Shown: positions 42,143-51,422, counted from the first letter of the stretch. The stretch: DNA of 64,000 nucleotides from Candidatus Multivoradales bacterium (GCA_965223855.1 CBDCXM010000009.1:3136001-3200000), one strand, 5' to 3'. The notes: generated by a model from the sequence alone, not told the origin. Program-made: numbers and translations.

Positions 42143-43126
42143 TCATCGGGAAGCTGCCCGGGAAGCTGAGCCGAGTGAGCGTCCGCAGGCCAGGAAGTCC
42201 CCTAGGCTCGCACTGAGCCCCACTGTTCCGACGCGGCTCTCGTAGTCACCATCGAAGTGGAGGCGGAGCGCCTTCCGCCCCGCACCCAGCATCTGCCGCA
42301 GGAGATCTGCCGCTGCCATTCTCTCCAGCTCGAAGAGGGTGCTGGTGCCACGATCGATGCCGCCCGAGATCTTCACCTCGTCGTCCCCAAGATCCACGGT
42401 GAGAAAGGGATAGTCCCGATCCGGCCAGTCCCGCGCGTCCCGCGGGCCCCGTGGCGGGACGCGGCCTCCGACCCAGCGATCGATGAGATACAGAATCTCC
42501 AGACGAAGGCCCCGCACTTGATCGATGACGAAGCGGATGCGTCCCGTCGCACGATCGCCGTCGATCTCCTTCTCGAGCAGGCAGCGAGAGCCGCCCCGCT
42601 CGAGTGCAGCAGCCCACGGCAGCTCGAGGTTCGACTCCCCCGCCTGGACGGCTTCTCTCAGGGCCTGAAGCCAGATCACGTTTCGCAATCGTTCGTCGGG
42701 ATCGGCGCCGGGCAACGAAGCCATCACTCCCGGGCGGCAGATCCGATCCGCCCCGTCTCCCCTGCAGCGCAGCCCGACCAGCGCCTCTTCCCTTCTTGCT
42801 CGCTTCACCCTCGGCCGGCACAGAGGAACCACCCCCAGCTCGACCGGCAGCTCGTCCACGCGCTCCCCTGCGAGCAGCTCCAGGACCGTCAGATCGTCGA
42901 TGGAGCCGTAGGAGCCGTTGACGACTTCGGCACGGACAACGTAGTCGACCCGCGCAACTCGCTCGACGAGAGTCAGCGCTCGACCAGGGCAGCATTGGGC
43001 CTGCGGCGGCTGCGCAGCGGCCGGCGAGGCCAGCAGCAGGGTCGCGAGGAGCGGCGGGAGCAGACGATGCCTCAGACGCTGATCGCCGAGGCCCTGCGAC
43101 TCCAGTGCCCCGGATCGAAGTGCCAC
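42143..43126 (-). CDS. Hypothetical secreted protein; 5' end abuts the left end of the HUH element
   Basis: Signal-like RHRLLPPLLATLLLASPAAA. The only conventional in-frame start upstream of it lies inside the GAAGTGCCAC end motif. Confidence 0.45.
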   Translation of the reverse strand: MALRSGALESQGLGDQRLRHRLLPPLLATLLLASPAAAQPPQAQCCPGRALTLVERVARVDYVVRAEVVNGSYGSIDDLTVLELLAGERVDELPVELGVVPLCRPRVKRARREEALVGLRCRGDGADRICRPGVMASLPGADPDERLRNVIWLQALREAVQAGESNLELPWAAALERGGSRCLLEKEIDGDRATGRIRFVIDQVRGLRLEILYLIDRWVGGRVPPRGPRDARDWPDRDYPFLTVDLGDDEVKISGGIDRGTSTLFELERMAAADLLRQMLGAGRKALRLHFDGDYESRVGTVGLSASLGDFLACGRSLGSASRAASR

Positions 43127-44400
43127 TCGAATCTGAGAGAACGCCCCCGTGAGATTCTTCCCCAGCTCCCCGTCTGGGAGAGCATGGGACGAAAGCTCCG
43201 CTACCTGCCTTCAGAAGCCCTCGTAGAAGTCACCTGCCGCGTCATCCAACGGCGCTTCCTCCTGCGCCCGTCTCCCGTTCTCAACGAGATCGTCGTCGGC
43301 ACCTTGGCCCGCGCGCAAAGGCGCTACGGGATGAAGGTGTGTGGGTTCGTCTATCTGTCAAACCATTGCCATCTACTGCTCTACCCGACCGACGCCAGGC
43401 AGCTCGCCGACTTCATGCGCTACGTCAACTCCAAGCTTGCTCGCGAGGTCGGACGGCTCCATGACTGGAGAGAGAAAGTCTGGGGGCGGCGCTACGTGGA
43501 CATCGAAGTCTCCGAGGAACCCGAAGCCCAGATCCGCCGTCTTCGCTACCTGCTGAGCCAGGGGGTCAAGGAAGGGCTCGTGGGATCGCCGAGGCACTGG
43601 CCCGGGGCCTCTTCGACCAAGGCTCTCCTTCAGGGGGAAGCGCTCGAAGGTGTCTGGATCGATCGCACGGAGCAGTTCAAGGCCCACGAGCGAGGGGAGG
43701 CCAACCCGGATGCGCTCTTCACCTCCCGCGAAAGAGTGGAACTCTCGCCACTGCCCTGCTGGAACCACGAACCCGAAGGCCACTGGCGATCGGAGGTCCG
43801 GCGGATGGTGAAGGAGATCGAGGAGGAGGCTCCGGACGACGTGCTGGGTAAGGACGCGATCCTCGCCCAACACCCGCACGATCGTCCCAGCACGCCCGAG
43901 AAGCGCACTCCAGCGCCTCGCTTCCACGCGATCGAAGGAAGCGTGCGCCGGGCGCTCGAGGCCGGCTACGCCCTCGTCGTCCTCGCCTATCGGCAGGCGG
44001 CCGAGGACCTCAAGCGCGGCAGGGCCGCCGAGTTCCCCGCCGGATGCTTCAGGCCGGCCCTGGGCTTCGTACCACTCCCGCTCAAGACCTAGCAGCAACG
44101 GGTCGGCAAGTCCCGATACAAGCCAGCCGGCAAAGCCGGGCGGCGGAGCCGTGCCCACTTCTCGTCAGAGTGACCTCAAGAGCGACGACCGGACCCCGAG
44201 AACCGGCCGACAGGCCCGAAACGCAGCGTCGAGAGCGCAGTTCGGACGAACCTCGCAATGCCGAGGTCGCTCCACCAACCCTTACAGAGCCAGCAGGCCA
44301 ACTCTTTCCAGGAAGCGTATGGCACCTCTTTGAGCGCCGACATCCGCCGGGCACCGGCCTCGCGGCACCAGCTTCGCGGGCACACCCTTGCCGCTGACAC
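43104..44400 (+). mobile_element. RAYT-like HUH element, copy 1
   Basis: Left motif GAAGTGCCACTCGAATC (43117), transposase gene, conserved tail, right motif TGGCACCTC (44320) and a GGCAC array to 44400. Homologous to copies 2 and 3. Confidence 0.75.
43184..44092 (+). CDS. HUH Y1 tyrosine transposase (RAYT / IS200-like), 302 aa
   Basis: VEVTCR, HUH motif SNHCHLL, WGRRY, catalytic-Tyr helix RYLLSQGVKEGLV, WPGASS. Confidence 0.9.
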   Translation: MGRKLRYLPSEALVEVTCRVIQRRFLLRPSPVLNEIVVGTLARAQRRYGMKVCGFVYLSNHCHLLLYPTDARQLADFMRYVNSKLAREVGRLHDWREKVWGRRYVDIEVSEEPEAQIRRLRYLLSQGVKEGLVGSPRHWPGASSTKALLQGEALEGVWIDRTEQFKAHERGEANPDALFTSRERVELSPLPCWNHEPEGHWRSEVRRMVKEIEEEAPDDVLGKDAILAQHPHDRPSTPEKRTPAPRFHAIEGSVRRALEAGYALVVLAYRQAAEDLKRGRAAEFPAGCFRPALGFVPLPLKT

Positions 44401-44532
44401 TCACTTCACTCGCTCGTCGTGGGTCACCGGCCATCGCCCGGCACGTCTAGCCGCACCCGCAGCGCCCCTGCCGCTTCCGTGGGCTAGCATCGCCCATCGC
44501 TTCTCAGACCCGACGAAGTTGAAGGAGACCCG

Positions 44533-47382
44533 ATGATTGAATCCTGCATCCAGTTCCTCCGTGGTCCGGAGAGAGCCTCGGACGGTGGTGATGTCGCCAG
44601 ACGACCCGCCCGCGTCTCTCCCGGGTTCGTCGTGGTGGTCGTGTCTCTCCTCGCCCCGCTTCTCGCGGCCGGCCATGGCAGGACAGAGGCCGCAGAAGCT
44701 GGAGCGCAGTTCGGAGCACAGTCCGGGCAGGAGGCCGTTCTCCACAGCGCCCATCTGCTCACCGAGCGGGGTCTCGTCGTAGAAGCGATCGCCCGCACCG
44801 CACAGGCTCTGCGGGAGGATCCCGCGAACGCGCGGGCGCGAAGCTGGCTGCTCGACGCGCTCCAGCGACGGGAGTGGTCGTGGATCCGATCGATCCTCCA
44901 GCATTCGAACGACGACGATCTGACCTCGGCCACGCTCAGCCCCGACGGCACCCGCGTCGTCACGACGTCGCACTCTGGCAGGACAAGGCTCTGGGATGCG
45001 GCGACCGGCCGACCCGTCGGCGAGCCGCTGCACCCCGACCAATCGGTATGGGGGCTGGCCGTATTCAGTCGTGATGGACGGCGCCTGTTCACCGTCTCGA
45101 ACGAGGCCAACGCCTTCTGGGACCCGCAGACGGGCCAGAAGACCGGGGAACTCGACGCCCCCTTCTTCTGGGAGCAGCAGGACGCCGCAGCAGCGGACTT
45201 CAGCCCTGACGGGACGCGCCTGGCGATCGCGGCATCCGAGGGCTTGCCGGTGCTCTTCGACGCCGACACCGGCGAGAGCCTGGCCGACGTCAACCCTCTC
45301 GTGGGAACCCTGTCGCACGTGACGTTCAGCCCCGACGGAGCCTATTTCGTCACGGCCGGATCGGAGACGCTCGAAGATGGGTCGGCTCACGATGGCGTCG
45401 TTCGGTTCTGGGACGGGACGACCGGAGAACCCCTCGGCGCGCCACTCCTTCACGACGCCAGGGCTACCTTTGCGTCCTTCAGTTTCGACGGCACGCGACT
45501 GCTCACTGTCTCGAACCACGGGAGCCCGACCACGCAGCAGGGCGGTGCCGCCCGACTCTGGGACGTGGCCACCCGAACCCCGCTTGGAGGGCCTCTCGAG
45601 CAACCCGGATTCATGCGAAGCGCGTCCTTCAGCCGGGACGGGACGCGCATCCTGACCGTCGCGGACGACCGGATCGGCAGGTTTGCTCAGGCTCAAGTCT
45701 GGGACGTGGCCAGCGGGCAACCGCTCGGACGGACGATCCGGCTCGACTTCACGGATGATTCGGGGTGGCGTGTCTTCTCCGCCTCGTTCAGTCCGGGGGG
45801 CGACCGGATCCTCACGGGAGGGGGAGACACGGACGTGCGCCTTTGGGATGCCGTGACGGGCGAGCCGATCGGAGAGCCCCTCGAGCACGGTTCCGCCGTG
45901 GTCTCGGCCTTGTTCGGCCCGGAAGGCAAGCGGGTCGTCACCGCTTCGGTCGACGGCAGAGCACGGCTCTGGGATGCGGCCATTGGCCAGCCTGACGGAC
46001 AGGCGCTCCGGCACGCGAGCCCCTTGCGCTCCGCGTACTTCAGCCCGGATGGTGGTCGCGTCGTCAGCTCCGCGGACGATCTCGGCGGCGCCCGGTTGTG
46101 GGAGGTGGCTTCAGGCCGGCTCCTCGGCGATCCCCTTCGACACCAGGACCATCGCGTCTTCGAAGCGTCGTTCAGCCCCGACGGCACGAGGGTCGTCACG
46201 GCCTCGGACGACCACACCGCCCAGATCTGGGACGCCGCGACCGGTGAGCGGGTCGGGCCAGCCCTCCGGCATGAAGACGGCGTCTCCTCCGCATCGTTCA
46301 GCCCGGACGGTTCGCTCGTCGTCACTGTCGCCCGGAACTGGGCCGCCGGCGTCTGGAACGCGGTCGGCGGCGAAGCGCTGGGAGAGCGGATCCGACACCG
46401 GGGGCCGATCGTATCCGCGTCGATCAGCCCCGACGGTCGGAGCCTCCTCACGGCCTGGAACGAGGGGAGCCCACCAGATGAAGGGCCGGACCTGGCAAGG
46501 CTCTGGGATCCGTCCACGGGCCAGCCGATTGGACCCTCCCTGCAGAACAACGTCTCCAGGCGGGAGGAGGACATCACGTCGGCCTCCTTCAGTCGGGACG
46601 GGTCGCGGATTCTCTCCGGCCTGTACGCTCGCGCGCTCGTCTTCGACTCGGCCCTCGAGCCGCTGAGGACGCTCGAGGCCGAGCGGTTCGGTGATCTCAG
46701 GACCCAGATCGTTTCGGCAGCCTTCAGTCCCGACGGCAGCCGGGTCGTCACCGCTGGAGAGAACGCCGCCTGGCTCTGGGACGAAGCGACCGGCCAGCGC
46801 GTCGGAGTGCCCCTCTCCCACGAGGGCCGGGTCGGCATGGCGGTGTTCGATCCCGACGGGGCCAGGGTGGTGACCGTCTCCGACGACAGCGCACGGGTAT
46901 GGGACGCGGTCAGCGGACTGCCACTGGGAGGACCGCTGCGACACCAGGCCGAAGTGCTCTCGGCCACCTTCGATGCCGAGGGAGACCGGATCCTCACGGC
47001 CTCGAAGGACGGAACCGCACGGCTCTGGGACGCGGAGATCGGCACCGAGACCGATTCGGCGGTCCTTGCCGATCTCGCCGAGCTGGTCGTCGGATACCGG
47101 CTGAGCGAGCTGCGAGCGCTGGTGCCGATCCGGGAGCCGCGACGAGAACTCGCGCGCCTCGCGCAGGCCGCCGGTACCGGAGAGGGCTTCGGGTGGCACT
47201 TCGTCCGGTGGTTCCTCAGCGACCGGCGGGAGCGCACCGTCTCGCCGCTGTCGACCCAGCCGCTGTCCGACTACTGCCGGGAGGAGCAGGGGTTTCGTGA
47301 AGAGCACCCCTATCCGAAGTTCGAGCTGCCGACGGCCTGCCGGGGGATCGTGGAGGAGGGACCGGGCCGGTCTCCGACATAG
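44533..47382 (+). CDS. Large WD40-repeat protein
   Basis: About 14 repeats of SASFSPDGxRVVTASxDxxARLWD, preceded by a hydrophobic N-terminal segment. Confidence 0.9.
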   Translation: MIESCIQFLRGPERASDGGDVARRPARVSPGFVVVVVSLLAPLLAAGHGRTEAAEAGAQFGAQSGQEAVLHSAHLLTERGLVVEAIARTAQALREDPANARARSWLLDALQRREWSWIRSILQHSNDDDLTSATLSPDGTRVVTTSHSGRTRLWDAATGRPVGEPLHPDQSVWGLAVFSRDGRRLFTVSNEANAFWDPQTGQKTGELDAPFFWEQQDAAAADFSPDGTRLAIAASEGLPVLFDADTGESLADVNPLVGTLSHVTFSPDGAYFVTAGSETLEDGSAHDGVVRFWDGTTGEPLGAPLLHDARATFASFSFDGTRLLTVSNHGSPTTQQGGAARLWDVATRTPLGGPLEQPGFMRSASFSRDGTRILTVADDRIGRFAQAQVWDVASGQPLGRTIRLDFTDDSGWRVFSASFSPGGDRILTGGGDTDVRLWDAVTGEPIGEPLEHGSAVVSALFGPEGKRVVTASVDGRARLWDAAIGQPDGQALRHASPLRSAYFSPDGGRVVSSADDLGGARLWEVASGRLLGDPLRHQDHRVFEASFSPDGTRVVTASDDHTAQIWDAATGERVGPALRHEDGVSSASFSPDGSLVVTVARNWAAGVWNAVGGEALGERIRHRGPIVSASISPDGRSLLTAWNEGSPPDEGPDLARLWDPSTGQPIGPSLQNNVSRREEDITSASFSRDGSRILSGLYARALVFDSALEPLRTLEAERFGDLRTQIVSAAFSPDGSRVVTAGENAAWLWDEATGQRVGVPLSHEGRVGMAVFDPDGARVVTVSDDSARVWDAVSGLPLGGPLRHQAEVLSATFDAEGDRILTASKDGTARLWDAEIGTETDSAVLADLAELVVGYRLSELRALVPIREPRRELARLAQAAGTGEGFGWHFVRWFLSDRRERTVSPLSTQPLSDYCREEQGFREEHPYPKFELPTACRGIVEEGPGRSPT

Positions 47383-47391
47383 GATCGGCGC

Positions 47392-47455
47392 ATGACAAAC
47401 CAAGAGCTGACTCGCCGGATCGAACGACTCGAGCGGACCCACCGGCTGCTGACAC
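47392..47455 (+). pseudogene. Probable 5' remnant of a gene interrupted by HUH element copy 2
   Basis: AGGA then ATG, reading MTNQELTRRIERLERTHRLLT, which runs into the end repeats. Confidence 0.4.
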
Positions 47456-47498
47456 GCCCGATGGAAGTGCCCCGATGGAAGTGCCCGATGGAAGTGCC
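47456..47498 (+). repeat. Three tandem copies of CCCGATGGAAGTG(C) at the left end of element copy 2
   Basis: Directly visible units starting at 47457, 47471 and 47484. Confidence 0.9.
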
Positions 47499-47557
47499 AC
47501 TCGAATCCCAGCGAACACTCTCGTGAGATTTCCCGACCATTCACCGTCTACGAGGGC

Positions 47558-48466
47558 ATGGGACGCAAGCTTCGCCACCTGCCCTCGGAAGCTCTCGTAG
47601 AAGTCACCTGTCGCGTGATCCAGAGGCGCTTTCTGCTGCGCCCGTCTCCGGTACTCAACGAGATCATCATCGGCACCCTTGCCCGAGGGCAGAGGCGCTA
47701 CGGAATGAGGGTGTGCGGGTTCGTCTACCTGTCGAATCACTGCCACCTGCTGCTCTATCCGACGGACGCCAGGCAACTCGCCGACTTCATGCGCTACGTC
47801 AACTCGAAGATCGCCCGCGAGGTCGGGCGGCTCCATGACTGGAGGGAGAAAGTCTGGGGGCGCCGCTATGTGGACATCGAGGTCTCCAAGGAACCCGAGG
47901 CGCAGGTTCACCGTCTTCGCTATCTCCTCCGACAAGGGGTCAAGGAAGGCCTCGTTGCTTCGCCGAAGCACTGGCCCGGAGCCTCCTCGACGAAGGCCCT
48001 GCTTAGGGGCGAAGAGCTCGAAGGCGTCTGGATCGACCGCACGGAGCAGTTCAGGGCCCACGAGCGCGGGGAGCACAACCCGGATGCGCTCTTCACTTCC
48101 CGGGAACGATTGGAGCTCTCTCCACTGCCCTGCTGGGAGCACGAACCAGAGAGCCGCTGGCGATCCGAGGTCCGGCGGATGGTGAGAGAGATCGAGAAGG
48201 AAGCCCCAGAACAGATCCTCGGCAAAGAGGCGATCCTCGCTCAACACCCGCACGATCGCCCCAGCACGCCTGCAAACCGGACCCCCGCGCCTCGCTTCCA
48301 CGCGATCCAAGGAAGCGTGCGCCGAGCGCTGGAGGCCGGCTATGCCCTCGTCGTCCTCGCCTATCGGCAGGCCGCAGAGGATCTCAAGCGCGGCGCAGTC
48401 GCCGACTTCCCCGCCGGGTGCTTCAGGCCGGGCCTCGGATTCGTGCCGCTCCCGCTCAGGGTCTAG
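47558..48466 (+). CDS. HUH Y1 tyrosine transposase (RAYT / IS200-like), 302 aa, paralogue of 43184-44092
   Basis: Same motifs; about 35 aa differences from copy 1 by manual comparison. Confidence 0.9.
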   Translation: MGRKLRHLPSEALVEVTCRVIQRRFLLRPSPVLNEIIIGTLARGQRRYGMRVCGFVYLSNHCHLLLYPTDARQLADFMRYVNSKIAREVGRLHDWREKVWGRRYVDIEVSKEPEAQVHRLRYLLRQGVKEGLVASPKHWPGASSTKALLRGEELEGVWIDRTEQFRAHERGEHNPDALFTSRERLELSPLPCWEHEPESRWRSEVRRMVREIEKEAPEQILGKEAILAQHPHDRPSTPANRTPAPRFHAIQGSVRRALEAGYALVVLAYRQAAEDLKRGAVADFPAGCFRPGLGFVPLPLRV

Positions 48467-48700
48467 CAGCAACGAGCCGGGAAGGCACGGATGGGAGCCA
48501 GCCGGCGAACGCGGGCGGCGGAGCTGTGCCCGCTTCTCGTCGCGCGCAACTCAACCCCGAGCGACTGTCCCCGAAGAGGCACCGAGAGGCCCGGAACGCA
48601 GCCGAGAGAGCGTAGTTCGACGAGCCTCGCAAACTTCAGGATGCCCCATCACCTGTCCAGAAGCATCCTCTTCAGGAAGAGCATGGCACCTCTAGGAGGG

Positions 48701-49078
48701 CGCCTATCGACAGGCGGCGGAGGATCTCAAGCGCGGCAGAGCCGCCGAGTTCCCCGCCGGCTGCTTCAGGCCGGCCCTGGGTTTCACACCACTCCCGCTC
48801 AAGACCTAGTAACAACGAGCCAGGGAGGTCCCGATTTACAAGCCAGCCGACAAGGCCGGGCCGCGGAGCCGTGCCCACTCGTCGTCAGAGTGACCTCAAG
48901 AGCGAACACCGGACCTCGAGAACCGGCCGACAGGCCCGAAACGCAGCTTCGAGAGCCGTGGTTTGGTTGAGCCTCCCGACGTCGAGGTTGCCCCATCACC
49001 CCTTCAGAGCCGTCCGGCAAACTCTTTTCCAAGAAGCGTGTGGCACCTCCTCTCGGGGGCACCTCTTCTCCGGGCCTC
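48701..49078 (+). mobile_element. Truncated third copy: last ~35 transposase codons, tail and right end
   Basis: AYRQAAEDLKRGRAAEFPAGCFRPALGFTPLPLKT with stop at 48809, a tail resembling copy 1, TGGCACCTC at 49041 and GGCACCTC at 49058. Confidence 0.8.
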
Positions 49079-49096
49079 TCCGGCGTCCTTTCCCAC

Positions 49097-50845
49097 TTAG
49101 GGGGTAGGAAGGTAGTGATGGAGGTGCCATCTCTCTAGCCAACCTACGATGTACTCCCGTGCTTCGTCGGGATTCTCATGCCCGCGCATTCCGACCTCCG
49201 TCAGTCCTTCCTCATAGCCGCTGACCCACTTGTCATGCAGACCCTGGGGACTGAAGTGCCACTTGTAGAGGTATACGCCGCACGGCAATTGCCACTCAAG
49301 GCGGGCAGCTTCCAACACCCACAGGTACTCGAAGCGCTCAAACTGAGTGTCAAAATCTGCCTTGTCTTTCGCGACCGATGGGCCGAAGAGCTGCCAGAGT
49401 CGTTCTCGGATGTGGCCGGACATTGCGAAGTAGACGCTTGATCCATATGCCTTCGCGTAGAGGTCGCTCGTAAGTACGCGATCCCCATCGAGACTCCGTA
49501 GCAGCGGCTGGCTATTCGGGAGAGCGTGGCTACCGCCTTCCTCCGCGACCGTGGGATCAAAGACGACGCGGGCCAGCATTCGGAAGTTCTTGCCTGCCAG
49601 CGCACTGATGCCGCACGAGTAGATCAAGAGCAATGCTGGATACCGACTTAGCCTCCTCCAGGCAGTGTACGTCTGTGCGTTCTTGTCTGCTGTCTTGACT
49701 GCGGCGAGTTCCTCGATCGTCCTCACGAGAGCTTGAGAATGATGAGGATCCTGCCCCCAATAGGCGACCGTGGTCGCTATACGCAAGAGCCCCTCTGTCA
49801 GAGCCTCGTATTCTTCGATGCGGTTCTTCATGGTCTCGCCATTCGGAGTTGGAGCAGACCAGCTCATGAGCTCCATGGCCGACCGGACCCGATCACGCTC
49901 ACCCGAGATGAGTCCGTCCATCCTTACTCGATGACGCGGCTCCGACACATAGGTTCTCGCGCGCTCCACCATCAGATCAATCGAGATAGGGTGCTGCCTG
50001 TCGAGGCCTTCAAGTGCTTGAAGTCGTTCGGCTAGCTCATCAAAGAACGAGTCTGCGCTGTCGATAGCGACTTGTACCGCTCCGGTCGCATCGACTATCT
50101 GGCGGCCCGAGTCACGCACTTGCCCTCCCCTAGCGGCCCAGTAGATGGGGAACGTCCTCTGCCGCGTCTCCCGGATGACCTCTCGGAGCGCAATGTCGTA
50201 GTCACCTGACCACCCGCATACCACTAGCCCGAAGTCACGGACTATTTCTCGGAGCATCCTCTTGCGATTCTGGTCGTACTTCGCAAGCTCTTCTTCGGTG
50301 TTCTTGATAGTTGGAGATAGGTAGTCTCCGTTGAGCTTCAAGAGCAAGCACTTCTGGTGAACAAGTGCGAGGGCGCCCTTGGCGTCGGCAGAAGTAGCCA
50401 CCACGGTAGGGTGCACTCCAACCGCCTCTAGCGCTGATTCAAGCAACCGATCGAAGTTGGTCGTGATGATGATCCTGACGTGACCAGACTTGCACAGTCG
50501 GGCGATGGCTCGATGTGCCTGGGTGGGTGCTTTCGAGCCATCGCCGTCCGAGTCAGACGGTTCAAAGTACGGCCGTAGGATTCCTTGACGCTCTACGGGG
50601 CCTGTTCCCAGATTCGTCACCACGCTGGAGTAGGTCGGCTCGCCAAAGCCTTGCTCCCGATACCAAGTCTCGGGATCATCGCCACAATCATCCCCCTTCA
50701 TAGTTCCCAGTTTTCGCACGAGGTCGAGAGCGATCTCATGGCCTGTTGGCATGCCAGCGGCCCGAGAAACGCCTGAACCCACGAGCAACGCGTAGGCTCC
50801 CGGATTGCCGTGGATGGCAAATGCCAACTGGTCAAGTGGGTCCAT
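49097..50845 (-). CDS. SIR2-like (SIR2_2) domain protein, putative anti-phage NADase
   Basis: LLVGSGVSRAAG, IITTNFDRLLE, LLKLNGDY, LVVCGWSG. Visibly lower GC (32/60 at 49621-49680). Start placed at ATG 50845. Confidence 0.85.
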   Translation of the reverse strand: MDPLDQLAFAIHGNPGAYALLVGSGVSRAAGMPTGHEIALDLVRKLGTMKGDDCGDDPETWYREQGFGEPTYSSVVTNLGTGPVERQGILRPYFEPSDSDGDGSKAPTQAHRAIARLCKSGHVRIIITTNFDRLLESALEAVGVHPTVVATSADAKGALALVHQKCLLLKLNGDYLSPTIKNTEEELAKYDQNRKRMLREIVRDFGLVVCGWSGDYDIALREVIRETRQRTFPIYWAARGGQVRDSGRQIVDATGAVQVAIDSADSFFDELAERLQALEGLDRQHPISIDLMVERARTYVSEPRHRVRMDGLISGERDRVRSAMELMSWSAPTPNGETMKNRIEEYEALTEGLLRIATTVAYWGQDPHHSQALVRTIEELAAVKTADKNAQTYTAWRRLSRYPALLLIYSCGISALAGKNFRMLARVVFDPTVAEEGGSHALPNSQPLLRSLDGDRVLTSDLYAKAYGSSVYFAMSGHIRERLWQLFGPSVAKDKADFDTQFERFEYLWVLEAARLEWQLPCGVYLYKWHFSPQGLHDKWVSGYEEGLTEVGMRGHENPDEAREYIVGWLERWHLHHYLPTP

Positions 50846-50865
50846 TCCAGTAACTTCCACGCCGT

Positions 50866-51039
50866 TCAGACGGACAGGTGTTTCCTTGGATGCCACAATC
50901 CCGCCAGCTGCCGCCGCAATGCCCTGAACACCTCCGACCACGTAGTGCCGGAGGCATGGACACTCGGCACCCCGACCACGGTGCCGACGATCACGCCGAA
51001 CAACGGGCGCTCTTCGAGGGCAACGTCGAAGCCCTGCAT
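50866..51039 (-). CDS. HicB-like small protein (57 aa, possibly degenerate)
   Basis: FDVALEERPLFGVIVGTVVGVPSVHASGTTWSEVFRAL resembles the HicB N-terminal beta-beta-beta-alpha pattern. Confidence 0.45.
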   Translation of the reverse strand: MQGFDVALEERPLFGVIVGTVVGVPSVHASGTTWSEVFRALRRQLAGLWHPRKHLSV

Positions 51040-51345
51040 CCGCCACAGGGGCGGCGGGCCTGCCTCGACGCCTCCCGACAGGCGGCGGCGATAGGGGAAC
51101 GGGTTCCCGCGAGAATCGTACATATGCTATTGGCCGAGTCTACACGCGGCGACTCCCCTCCCTTCGCTGCCCACGCCAAGGCGCAAGACCCCCAATTGAG
51201 CGGCGGCGGGCGCTGCACTTCGCTGCTACGCCACGCTCCCGAGGGGCCGCCAAACTCTTGCAGTCGTCTTGCAAGCCTGCTCGCACAGCCCCGAAACCGT
51301 AGGGGGGCAATCCAAGCAACTTGTTTGTTTTGTTGAACTTGGAAT

Positions 51346-51422
51346 TGGTCGGGACGGGGAGATTTGAACTCCCGACCCCCTGAACCCCATTCAGGTGCGC
51401 TACCAGGCTGCGCCACGTCCCG
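51346..51422 (-). tRNA. tRNA-Pro(GGG)
   Basis: CGGGACGTGGCGCAGCCTGGTAGCGCA, anticodon arm CCTGA-ATGGGGT-TCAGG, GTTCAAAT T-loop, encoded CCA. Confidence 0.97.

Follow-up and report, generated by a model that had tools for sequence, protein, structure and literature searches.

The window analyzed here, the whole stretch of 64,000 nucleotides, contains a multi-copy element of about 1.2 kb from an Acidobacteriota-type genome, twice in full and once in part. We consider it reasonably probable that this is an autonomous, IS-like mobile element, which carries a single gene for a RAYT-like Y1 HUH protein of about 300 amino acids and whose ends are re-copied after nicks. The coordinates of the window copies are given in Table 1. 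A preliminary description of this DNA had seen in them a local cluster and an undescribed system; its observation was confirmed, and its interpretation was partly supported.

The preliminary description had counted two intact, co-oriented 302-aa HUH/Y1 genes with about 35 mostly conservative differences, a third copy limited to the 3' part, a left motif 67 nt before the ATG of both full copies, and right ends 218-232 nt after the stops. These observations were confirmed. The proteins of copies 1 and 2 differ at exactly 35 residues, mostly conservatively, and the gene pair has a dS of 0.57 and a dN/dS of 0.11. The left motif GAAGTGCCACTCGAATC is present without mismatch at 43117 and 47491, each 67 nt 5' of the ATG. 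The right motif TGGCACCTC has three plus-strand occurrences, at 44320 (228 nt 3' of the stop of copy 1), 48684 (218 nt, copy 2), and 49041 (232 nt, copy 3); a fourth match is on the minus strand at 49121. With up to three mismatches, the left motif has four matches in the window (0.22 expected, and four were reached in 0 of 100 shuffles); the right motif also has four matches (0.41 expected, 0 of 100 shuffles). Copy 3 is nearer to copy 1 (309 of 355 aligned bases) than to copy 2, which it adjoins (267 of 340). The end micro-arrays were likewise real: three 13-14-nt units are present at 47456-47498, and GGCACC or GGCACA recurs at 44321, 44350, 44364, and 44379.

Table 1. Features of the three element copies, numbered from the first nucleotide of the window.
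Feature	Position	Strand	Description	Basis
Copy 1, left end	43104..43133	+	partial unit AGTGCC (43104-43109), then left inverted repeat	motif match, alignment with copy 2, family comparison
Copy 1, left inverted repeat	43108-43133	+	CCCC-GGATC-GAAGTGCC-ACTCGAATC	
Copy 1, gene	43184..44092	+	302 aa, Y1 HUH, RAYT-like; open	
Copy 1, non-coding tail	44093..44310	+	about 218 nt, from stop to right inverted repeat	
Copy 1, right end	44311..44384	+	right inverted repeat, then micro-array of GGCACC-type units	
Copy 1, right inverted repeat	44311-44328	+	GGAAGCGTA-TGGCACCTC	
Copy 1, right micro-array	44350, 44364, 44379	+	GGCACC-type units	
Copy 2, left end	47456..47507	+	three tandem 13-14-nt units (CGATGGAAGTGCC), then ACTCGAATC	
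Copy 2, gene	47558..48466	+	302 aa; open; 35 residues differ from copy 1	
Copy 2, tail and right inverted repeat	48467..48700	+	outer boundary is a G run	
Copy 2, right inverted repeat	48675-48700	+	GGAAGAGCA-TGGCACCTC-TAGGAGGG	
Copy 3	48701..49074	+	5'-truncated tandem copy directly adjoining the copy 2 right end	
Copy 3, coding remnant	48702-48809	+	final 35 codons and stop, in frame; then a tail	
Copy 3, right repeat	49032-49059	+	AGAAGCGTG-TGGCACCTC-CTCTCGGGGG, plus one further GCACCTC unit	

The copy 1 protein has the HUH motif NHCH (residues 60-63), the Tyr motif YLLSQGVKEGLV (Y122), a WPGASS box, and an invariant TPAPRFHA box. The search with the Pfam Y1_Tnp profile that the preliminary description had proposed gave 28.3 and 25.2 bits, above the cut-off of 23. 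The NCBIfam equivalog REP_Tyr_transpos (NF047646) scored 51.7 and 51.0 bits over model positions 13-144 of 146; with a cut-off of 80, this marks a related protein and not a member by the curated threshold. The closest PDB sequence, ISDra2 TnpA (E 0.001), aligns on the HUH motif and Y-x3-Q. In an alignment of 28 sequences, the Tyr motif reads Y-L-L-x-Q-G, and Q126 and G127 are nearly invariant. The AF2 model (pLDDT 84.6) had its best Foldseek match to E. coli TnpAREP (4er8_A; E 1.6e-5, TMt 0.68, 150 columns), followed by the TnpA of ISDra2 and IS608 (2xm3, 2f4f, 2vjv). The same genome encodes a canonical, single-copy 219-aa Y-x3-NP paralogue, whose Tyr motif aligns with that of the family (30% identity over 110 aa), and which has its own flanking inverted repeats and about 20 gene-less copies of a related motif. 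Alignment, structure match, and paralogue bear out the earlier remark that QG follows the Tyr in place of NP and that the C-terminus is extended; the protein is a RAYT-like Y1 HUH protein with Y-x3-QG instead of Y-x3-NP.

The C-terminal region of about 160 residues (135-302) had no Pfam match at E<=10 and no Foldseek match at E<=0.001. Its best VIA-align Z to a solved fold was 3.7, for one helix; a very divergent HTH could escape such searches. Complex prediction supported binding as a homodimer, with a score of 0.42 compared with 0.01 for the best of three controls; 20 of 30 proteins solved as pairs reach this mark, as does 1 of 23 solved as single chains. The runs agreed in at least 97% of contacts, with a partner pLDDT of at least 88. 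The predicted interface joins residues 284-299 to residues 9-10 and 70-72, and the protein is predicted to form a homodimer through its last 16 residues. The solved TnpA dimers have no counterpart of this predicted interface region.

The own genome (4.5 Mb) has 32 matches to the family, including 19 open full-length copies at dispersed loci, fragments, and one pseudogene with stops. The full-length proteins have 300-304 aa and are 56-91% identical to copy 1. The supposed 6-kb system consists of three members of a family that has about 20 copies across the genome. These copies are old (dS from 0.11 to saturated), yet all 19 are open, and dN/dS within the three subfamilies is 0.06-0.25; the purifying selection suspected earlier is confirmed by these values. 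Of 31 genomes of the order, counting G000 and the unpublished G005, 26 have matches to the family (25 of 30 without G005), with 0 to 22 in each of 30 relatives and 23 in G000. Among MAGs, the family is widespread in Thermoanaerobaculia and in other Acidobacteriota. Neither excision products nor empty sites or new insertions were seen; the flanks had no DNA or protein match in four genomes of the same genus, and the public runs hold contigs only.

The ends of the family are imperfect inverted repeats of about 18-28 nt, with an outer G/C run, an AGGTGCC core, and then GAAT. In the left repeat, AGGTGCC is preceded by an outer C run with 4-6 variable bases and followed by 3-4 variable bases with GAAT; the right repeat, its complement, terminates in a G run. 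The right motif had been called nearly the reverse complement of the left. This holds for the family, but in the window copies only about nine bases are perfect (GARGTGCCA; copy 1 matches at 12 of 18), and an unguided 16-mer scan did not pick out the window-copy repeats (12/16 and 11/16, a level that the direct-repeat control also reaches). The inverted repeat is thus weak in the two full copies, and its significance derives from the family-wide evidence. The best inverted 16-mer matched at 14 or more of 16 positions at 11 of 19 loci in the own genome (direct-repeat control, 3 of 19) and at 24 of 50 loci in other genomes (control, 3 of 50). Most of those 24 loci share a AGGTGCCANCCGAWTC-type core, which precedes the ATG by 50-190 nt and follows the stop by 213-310 nt. 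As the preliminary description had anticipated, the ends are conserved together with the protein across genomes. The three in-genome subfamilies have different inverted repeats, one set per subfamily, and the repeat co-evolves with the protein across them.

The window-copy ends have no hairpin potential (single-strand DNA folds, z -0.46 to +1.14), and GTAG-type REP hairpins were not found beside these copies, as had been noted before. The non-coding tail (215-245 nt in most family copies, with a leader of about 65-70 nt) had been described as conserved. This was not upheld: identity in tail windows between copies 1 and 2 is 0.55-0.85, against 0.65 at four-fold sites, so that the tail diverges at about the neutral rate. 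No significant structure was found in the tail, and the copy 1 tail had no match in Rfam.

Short tandem repeats are frequent at the ends. They are present at 8 of 19 left and 8 of 19 right ends in the own genome (2, 1, 0, and 0 of 19 in four control windows), and at 17 of 46 left and 29 of 46 right ends in other genomes (controls 5, 4, 0, and 4 of 46). Partial or full copies on the same strand lie 3' of the right end at 10 of 65 loci, and left-end copies lie upstream at 7 of 65; the opposite-strand counterparts number 2 and 0. Across many genomes, and at left and right ends alike, all duplicated units have a common outer boundary. At the junctions, the right-end G run is joined to a source site starting with GG in 7 of 10 cases. 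Two partial copies match the tail of the neighboring copy at 100% identity, whereas tails of different copies are only 50-75% alike, an indication of copying in cis. Mosaic copies also occur: three members of the B subfamily have 100% identity between the left end and a point 470-570 nt into the gene, and diverge beyond it. Contig C4 is a strain variant of C9:85480-94932 (96-98% identical); the same element is about 100% identical in both, but its right-end array is built differently, a strain-level polymorphism between two haplotypes. The earlier proposal that DNA is remodelled at GGCAC motifs stands in so far as arrays and partial copies occur at GGCAC-containing ends; the recurrent break beside GGCAC would more plausibly mark the inner point at which re-copied end segments begin than a site of cleavage.

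In the mechanism we favor, the conserved C-terminal tail would hold the protein together as a dimer, which would bind the inverted repeats, probably via the C-terminal 160 residues or on transiently single-stranded DNA. Each strand would be nicked at the outer boundary, 3' of the G run; this putative cleavage position is taken from the duplication boundaries only. The nicks would mobilize the element, and their repair or replication, with re-priming on short G microhomology, would re-copy the terminal segment. The products would be micro-arrays of 13-30 nt, 5'-truncated tandem copies of 100-560 nt, and ends that stand alone or in clusters. The DNA that HUH enzymes cut is single-stranded and usually presented in a hairpin, and the hairpin-free ends count against this mechanism. 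The old, all-open copies, the weak window repeat, the failure to see excision products, empty sites, or new insertions, and, in a small sample, the lack of an orientation bias also count against it; old, all-open intragenomic copies are a pattern of domesticated multi-copy Y1 subclasses as well. More tentatively, the element may be a living intermediate between IS200/IS605 and domesticated RAYT-REP systems, that is, a still autonomous inverted-repeat transposon whose dimer nicks the 3' termini of both strands and whose terminal segments are continuously re-copied as these nicks are repaired or replicated; we regard this as doubtful. If it were true, gene-less repeat arrays would here be in the course of being born, as is thought for REP/BIME clusters, and the family would offer a natural and tractable system in which to study what RAYT-type enzymes do in vivo. 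To our knowledge, such activity has never been demonstrated.

It is highly improbable that the element is of the usual IS200/IS605 type, which moves by peel-and-paste and has subterminal hairpins and a target of four nucleotides. The Y1 HUH chemistry and fold, the Y-x3-Q spacing, the similarity to ISDra2 TnpA, the multiple copies with fragments, and the lack of an evident target duplication at the flanks of the copies agree with it. However, IS200/IS605 elements have subterminal hairpins on one strand, no terminal inverted repeats, and a small transposase of about 150 aa, and their insertion is biased in orientation relative to replication. The family has inverted repeats, proteins of 300-304 aa with RAYT-type motifs after the Tyr, and copies that are 56-91% identical and not near-identical; on contig C9, 8 copies are co-oriented with replication and 6 opposed, a small sample (n=14) with origin and terminus placed by GC skew, and no tnpB is present. 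Ends, length, and divergence contradict this candidate. Alternatively, the element could be mobile while its arrays and partial copies stem from repeated truncated single-strand insertion beside a resident end, or from slippage or unequal recombination, in place of nick-primed re-copying. Repeated insertion would make the end itself the preferred target, by analogy with the reuse of the flanking target in IS200/IS605. The greater similarity of copy 3 to copy 1 would fit its arrival from another copy, or old age; the full head-to-tail pair at C9:1069704 and 1071006 and the nested partial copies in L050 are also in line with these alternatives, and arrays, as simple tandem repeats, are expandable by slippage. 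Enzyme-free slippage or recombination could account for some arrays. As a general explanation, either alternative is made unlikely by the two partial copies identical to their neighbors' tails, the outer boundary common to all units, and the rarity of such repeats in control windows.

The remaining possibility is a domesticated, host-serving system of the RAYT type (a strict REPtron or TIRtron), with immobile genes under host selection, repeats that structure the genome as REPs do, and gene copies made by ordinary duplication. The open reading frames and low dN/dS in spite of saturated dS, the presence in most genomes of the order, and the 219-aa paralogue with its own gene-less motifs speak for it, as do the gene-less end motifs of the family, which occur singly and in same-orientation clusters (e.g., C9:3069050-3069480 and C2:169600-170420). 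A multi-copy, diverged, non-IS subclass is known (subclass 2.3; Quentin 2018, PMC6006769). We nevertheless judge domestication quite unlikely. At each of the dispersed loci the gene lies between inverted repeats, beyond which the copies are no longer homologous, and this marks a unit moving whole; there are fragments and a stop-bearing pseudogene, copy number varies among relatives, and end motifs number in the tens, not hundreds. Purifying selection between old transposon lineages is expected if only working copies propagate.

The family is not wholly undescribed, as the preliminary description had supposed: JGI labels close homologues 'REP element-mobilizing transposase RayT', and the names TIRtron and TIRYT were introduced in 2013 for RAYT-like genes with inverted repeats on either side (Di Nocera, De Gregorio, Rocco, BMC Genomics 14:522; PMC3733652), the closest of the printed descriptions compared. 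Both have a RAYT-like Y1 gene inside inverted repeats (weak in the window copies) and not REP hairpins, and gene-less repeats, as singles, dimers, and clusters there and solo and clustered here; TIRtrons occur in Acidobacteria, among other phyla (PMC3733652). Published TIRYTs are mostly single or few per genome, whereas the gene here has about 20 copies. In PMC6006769, 20 of 26 TIRYTs belong to TnpAY1 subclass 2.1, with Y-x3-NP and an HTH/DnaA_C-like C-terminus; the present family has Y-x3-QG, and the searches described above linked its last 160 residues to neither a Pfam family nor a solved fold. The GGGGWSAS box is carried by only some published TIRtron repeats (PMC3733652), and none of the three window copies has it at its ends. 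The TIRtron text passages of PMC3733652 describe no boundary-anchored end duplications such as those found here.

RAYT/TnpAREP (4ER8) gives the best structural match, which covers residues 1 to about 150, has a homologous motif after the Tyr (V-K/R-x-GLV ... P-x-x-W-P-x-S-S), and has cognate repeats inverted on either side of the gene. It differs in having about one gene per genome and a protein half as long; here the NF047646 score is under the cut-off, QG replaces NP, and there are no palindromic GTAG REPs. Y-x3-N-P is the class 2 Tyr signature (PMC6006769); it is absent from this family, whereas the canonical paralogue has N-P at the aligned positions. In the same source, subclass 1.1 has a mean intragenomic identity of 99.4% (Table 1), and subclass 2.3 (Quentin, Siguier, Chandler, Fichant 2018) resembles our family in its long proteins (median 325 aa), many copies (>5 per genome), low intragenomic identity, and lack of REPs; its signatures are NHYH, WE, and YVDLNP, and it occurs in Chromatiales and Alteromonadales. 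Class 3, from Acidobacteria and Planctomycetes, also has a Q after the Tyr, but its proteins have 178 aa and Y-x4-Q, and its hairpins have a CnGA foot (PMC6006769). With NHCH, W-G/P-R, and Y-L-L-x-Q-G, the family fits none of the 12 printed TnpAY1 signatures.

Both full copies in the window (copies 1 and 2) carry an open 302-aa gene in the same orientation, as the preliminary description had stated; its estimate of about 35 differences between the two proteins proved to be exactly 35. The 17-mer GAAGTGCCACTCGAATC is located 67 nt upstream of both ATGs, the distance first reported, and has four matches at up to 3 mismatches against 0.22 expected (0 of 100 shuffles reached 4). The right motif TGGCACCTC lies 228, 218, and 232 nt downstream of the three stop codons, in keeping with the 218-232 nt originally given; its four exact matches compare with 0.41 expected, and again 0 of 100 shuffles reached 4. 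Short tandem units were found at both ends of the window elements, where micro-arrays had been described. Copy 3, which is partial, is more similar to copy 1 (309/355 identities) than to copy 2 (267/340). In the four public sequencing runs, the contigs are broken at repeats; runs X2 and X4 join position 48703 to 48961, with 18 other letters between and 4 mismatches beyond. The features are listed in the table below.

Features of the element family, its ends, and its surroundings (C9, the contig containing the window, which spans C9:3136001-3200000; IR, inverted repeat)
Feature	Location	Strand	Left end	Right end	Remarks
Copy 1 gene	window 43184-44092	+			302 aa, open ORF
Copy 2 gene	window 47558-48466	+			302 aa, open ORF
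Copy 3, partial	window, start 48701				directly adjoins copy 2 right end; last 35 codons and tail only
Subfamily A ends			GAAGTGCC-ACWCGAATC	GAAKCGTGT-GGCACCTC	imperfect IR
Subfamily B ends			AGGTGCC-GGGTGAATAGT	ACTATTCACCC-GGAACCTCT	imperfect IR
Subfamily C ends			AGGTGTC-ACAGGAATACTG	CAGTATTCCTGT-GAGGCCTCTA	imperfect IR
WD40 gene	window 44533-47382	+			949 aa
Right-end-like motif	window 47184-47202				in 3' part of WD40 gene
SIR2_2-domain protein	window 49097-51422	-			649 aa
Left-end-type motif GAGGTGCCA	window 49121-49129				within 3' end of SIR2_2 ORF
tRNA-Pro(GGG)	window 51346-51422				adjoins SIR2_2 stretch
C9 counterpart of C4 strain variant	C9:85480-94932
Subfamily C hot spot	C9:1063300-1079000				16 kb
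Canonical RAYT-like gene	C9:452617-453379 (locus L028, ~1305-2067)				219 aa, single copy
CGGTGACAGGATACYCATC inverted dimers, examples	C9:2344889/2344942, 454942/455005
CGGTGACAGGATACYCATC tandem arrays	C9:1706117-1706333, 2358482-2358554

The gene between copies 1 and 2 has the same orientation and encodes ~15 WD40/beta-propeller repeats (Pfam WD40, E 2.4e-60). This arrangement resembles a composite transposon; there is no sign that the three move jointly. The right-end-like motif in the WD40 gene is the complement of GAAGTGCCACCCGAAGC, differs from the left 17-mer by 2 mismatches, and is located 290 nt upstream of the copy 2 left end; it may be a chance match or a relic. The SIR2_2 stretch (local GC 0.58 vs 0.68) could represent an island or a gene of the defence type.

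Three copies are indeed located together, as first described, but they are not a local cluster; they are members of a genome-wide family. Copy 1 has 32 matches in the source genome (4.52 Mb, 68% GC). Of these, 19 are full-length genes with an open reading frame of 300-304 aa, scattered over the genome. One further copy, on the small contig C4, is frameshifted, and the rest are fragments. The family comprises three subfamilies (A, B, and C) with 56-91% amino acid identity to copy 1. The preliminary description had also proposed purifying selection between copies, and dN/dS bears this out: it is 0.06-0.25 within subfamilies, at dS from 0.11 to saturation, and 0.11 for the copy 1/copy 2 pair (dS 0.57). 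The element is a single-gene, IR-bounded unit that is multi-copy in this genome and under selection for protein function. No bias in its orientation relative to replication was seen in the small sample on C9 (8 vs 6 of 14). Two small boxes precede the ATG of all full copies, at ~12-17 nt and ~35-40 nt, and are conserved in all three subfamilies as well as in other genomes: CCGTCT directly upstream of the ribosome-binding site, and TG(C/T)(A/G)AGAT farther upstream. They may serve as a promoter, an operator, or an inner binding site. On C9, the hot spot includes three full copies of subfamily C, two of which are arranged head-to-tail, together with gene fragments and numerous solo C-type ends. 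Contigs C1, C4, and C7 are small and 90-98% identical to parts of C8 and C9, and are therefore pieces of a second strain in the assembly.

Among 5270 candidates, 864 homologous proteins were listed at E ≤ 1e-3; those that are named carry the JGI label 'REP element-mobilizing transposase RayT' or similar. An exhaustive search of representatives returned 4374, 1923, and 458 hits at E-value limits of 1e-3, 1e-10, and 1e-30, respectively. When genome contigs were searched, 87 out of 135 candidate stretches could be confirmed, and 80 were retained, a single MAG often being the source of several loci; nearly all belong to Thermoanaerobaculia or other Acidobacteriota MAGs, with a few Gemmatimonadota or Myxococcota-type records. 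Matches at E ≤ 1e-20 occur in 26 of the 31 genomes of the order, the source genome and one unpublished relative included (25 of 30 minus the latter). The number of matches is 23 in the source genome and ranges from 0 to 22 in the 30 relatives.

The ends of each subfamily form imperfect IRs. Between close copies at different loci, homology reaches the C run on the left and the G run on the right (~27-29 bp total). In an unguided scan, the best inverted 16-mer matched at 14 or more positions in 11 of 19 loci of the source genome, against 3 of 19 in a direct-repeat control. The same scan gave 24 of 50 loci in other genomes against 3 of 50; co-conservation of the end motifs in homologue flanks, as anticipated, is thereby borne out. 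Most of these 24 loci have a common core of the AGGTGCCANCCGAWTC type, and its distances from the gene are similar. Copies 1 and 2 reach only 12/16 and 11/16; beyond a 9-nt core, the matches in their IR are scattered. Folded as single strands, the window ends showed no potential to form hairpins (z -0.46 to +1.14), which agrees with the reported lack of REP-type hairpins. No target duplication was visible in the flanks. The outer half of the IR might be a palindromic target, AGGTGCC/GGCACCT, split by insertion; we reject this, as the source genome contains 0 such sites and copies at different loci have this half in common. An empty-site search was uninformative either way: the upstream ORF had no homologue in four same-genus genomes, and the match at locus L005 covered the element part only.

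Tail length is rather constant in most copies: the distance from stop to right IR is 215-236 nt for 16 of 18 copies in the source genome and 267-270 nt for the other two. Measured in MAFFT sliding windows (a gap-permissive measure performed no better than on shuffled sequence), the tail between stop and IR changes at roughly the rate of four-fold sites when copies 1 and 2 are compared, and at a much higher rate among the mosaic subfamily B copies. We considered the tail as a possible RNA. A fold with z ≤ -2 in its first 80 nt was found in 6 of 65 loci, and equally often (6 of 65) in coding controls; subfamily C alone has a strong hairpin downstream of the stop; and a search of the tails against Rfam at E ≤ 1 gave nothing relevant, only two chance-level hits. 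The RNA reading was therefore rejected, and the "conserved tail" of the preliminary description is unsupported beyond the IR itself.

Boundary-anchored duplication is concentrated at the element ends and is both recent and polymorphic. Short tandem repeats (period 10-45 nt) were present at the left and right ends of 8 and 8 of 19 own loci, compared to 2, 1, 0, and 0 in flank and coding control windows, and of 17 and 29 of 46 foreign loci, compared to 5, 4, 0, and 4. Among 65 loci, longer same-strand repeats of the element were found downstream of the right end in 10 and, as left-end repeats, upstream in 7; opposite-strand repeats numbered 2 and 0. In the source genome, five right-end cases are 5'-truncated copies that start 235-245 nt after the stop, i.e., adjoining the right IR, and two of these are 100% identical to their source. 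The sixth is a head-to-tail full pair; locus L050 contains nested partial copies. The strain-variant element on C4 is ~100% identical to its C9 counterpart with one indel, in flanks that are diverged by 2-4% or more, and its right-end array is built differently. Because some duplications are identical and an array differs between co-assembled strains, these events are recent and their junctions readable. In three subfamily B copies, identity is 100% between the left end and a point 470-570 nt into the gene, 80-90% beyond it, and 50-75% in the tails; this mosaic is left-end-anchored. Gene-less end motifs occur in the source genome as singles and same-orientation clusters.

In every array, at both ends, the outer boundary is common to the units and the inward reach varies. 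The breaks of the arrays at GGTGCC/A had suggested this point as the cleavage site. That reading was displaced by the long partial copies: since they share the outer boundary and vary in the inner point, GGNACC is more probably a preferred site of re-starting, with G microhomology. Seven of ten junctions connect the terminal G run with a source site whose first bases are GG. From these junctions we predict cleavage at the outer boundary, 3' of the G run. A dimeric Y1 enzyme would recognise the IRs and nick each strand there, and these nicks would mobilise the element, which is probably mobile; repair by re-priming on G microhomology would copy the terminal segment again. Single strands might be presented without a hairpin if right and left ends abut, whether in circular form or as a tandem pair, to form a long palindrome.

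The source genome also contains a canonical single-copy RAYT-like gene with Y-x3-NP (NCBIfam REP_Tyr_transpos, 68.6 bits, below cut-off). It is closely bordered on both sides by another repeat, CGGTGACAGGATACYCATC, in inverted copies. This repeat has 23 hits at up to 3 mismatches genome-wide, as singles, inverted dimers, and tandem arrays, and resembles the subfamily C repeat. This gene and its repeats are a classical TIRtron alongside the multi-copy family.

The assignment of the window proteins as RAYT-like HUH/Y1 enzymes held in HMM searches: Pfam Y1_Tnp scored 28.3 and 25.2 bits, slightly above the cut-off of 23, and NCBIfam REP_Tyr_transpos scored 51.7 bits, clearly related but below its cut-off of 80. 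The closest solved protein by sequence is ISDra2 TnpA (E 0.001), with NHCH aligned over HVH and YLLSQ over YIESQ. An AF2 model (pLDDT 84.6) matched E. coli TnpAREP best (4ER8, E 1.6e-5, TMt 0.68, 150 columns), followed by ISDra2 and IS608. An alignment of 28 sequences is conserved over its full length; among its features are WPG, a PAPRF box that is invariant, and FPxGxF at the terminus. The motif from the Tyr onward, YLLxQGxKEGLVxSPxxWPGxS, reads plainly as the RAYT motif with QG replacing NP; the canonical 219-aa paralogue has YVLMNPVRAGLV...WPHSS at the aligned positions, and the substitution noted earlier thus stands, as does the long C-terminal extension. Residues 135-302 matched no Pfam family at E ≤ 10; for the C-terminal domain, Foldseek gave no solved fold at E ≤ 0.001 and VIA a best Z of 3.7 over one helix, blanks that are no proof of a new fold. 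The ESM Atlas returned only unnamed clusters for residues 140-302 (best score 0.91). A homodimer was predicted with a score of 0.42 (best of three controls, 0.01). Of proteins solved as pairs, 20 of 30 reached that mark, and of those solved as single chains, 1 of 23; runs agreed in at least 97% of contacts, with partner pLDDT of at least 88. The predicted interface is formed by the conserved last 16 residues and is without counterpart in solved TnpA dimers.

To our knowledge, it is still unsettled by what means enzymes of the RAYT-type HUH group mobilise or multiply their cognate repeats in the cell. Known RAYT systems have a single-copy gene and hundreds of old repeats, with few fresh events. 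Here the gene-carrying unit is itself multi-copy, which provides recent events with readable junctions, and these yield a concrete, testable prediction of the cleavage site.

The family is an IR-bounded RAYT-like Y1 element, real and with a defined anatomy, which matches that of the TIRtron as far as the available text of Di Nocera et al. 2013 (PMC3733652) describes it. Full-text literature on TIRYT/TIRtron and on Y1 transposases with terminal inverted repeats and HUH gave no further description of this 300-aa family, which could be present unnoticed in supplementary alignments, HMMs, or Figure 9 of Di Nocera et al. In the accessible portion of Bertels et al. 2017 (PMC5581495), IS-like RAYT groups are given by distribution statistics only. 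In that of Quentin et al. 2018 (PMC6006769), published TIRYTs mostly belong to subclass 2.1, characterised by Y-x3-NP and a C-terminus of HTH type, whereas this family has Y-x3-QG and a 160-residue extension without recognised fold. Compared by the signatures printed there, none of the 12 TnpAY1 subclasses fits; subclass 2.3 (long, multi-copy, diverged) is nearest in behaviour and class 3 in host phylum. Within the literature covered, both the end-duplication footprints and the protein architecture, which adds a predicted dimer through the C-terminal tail to this motif and extension, appear to be new.
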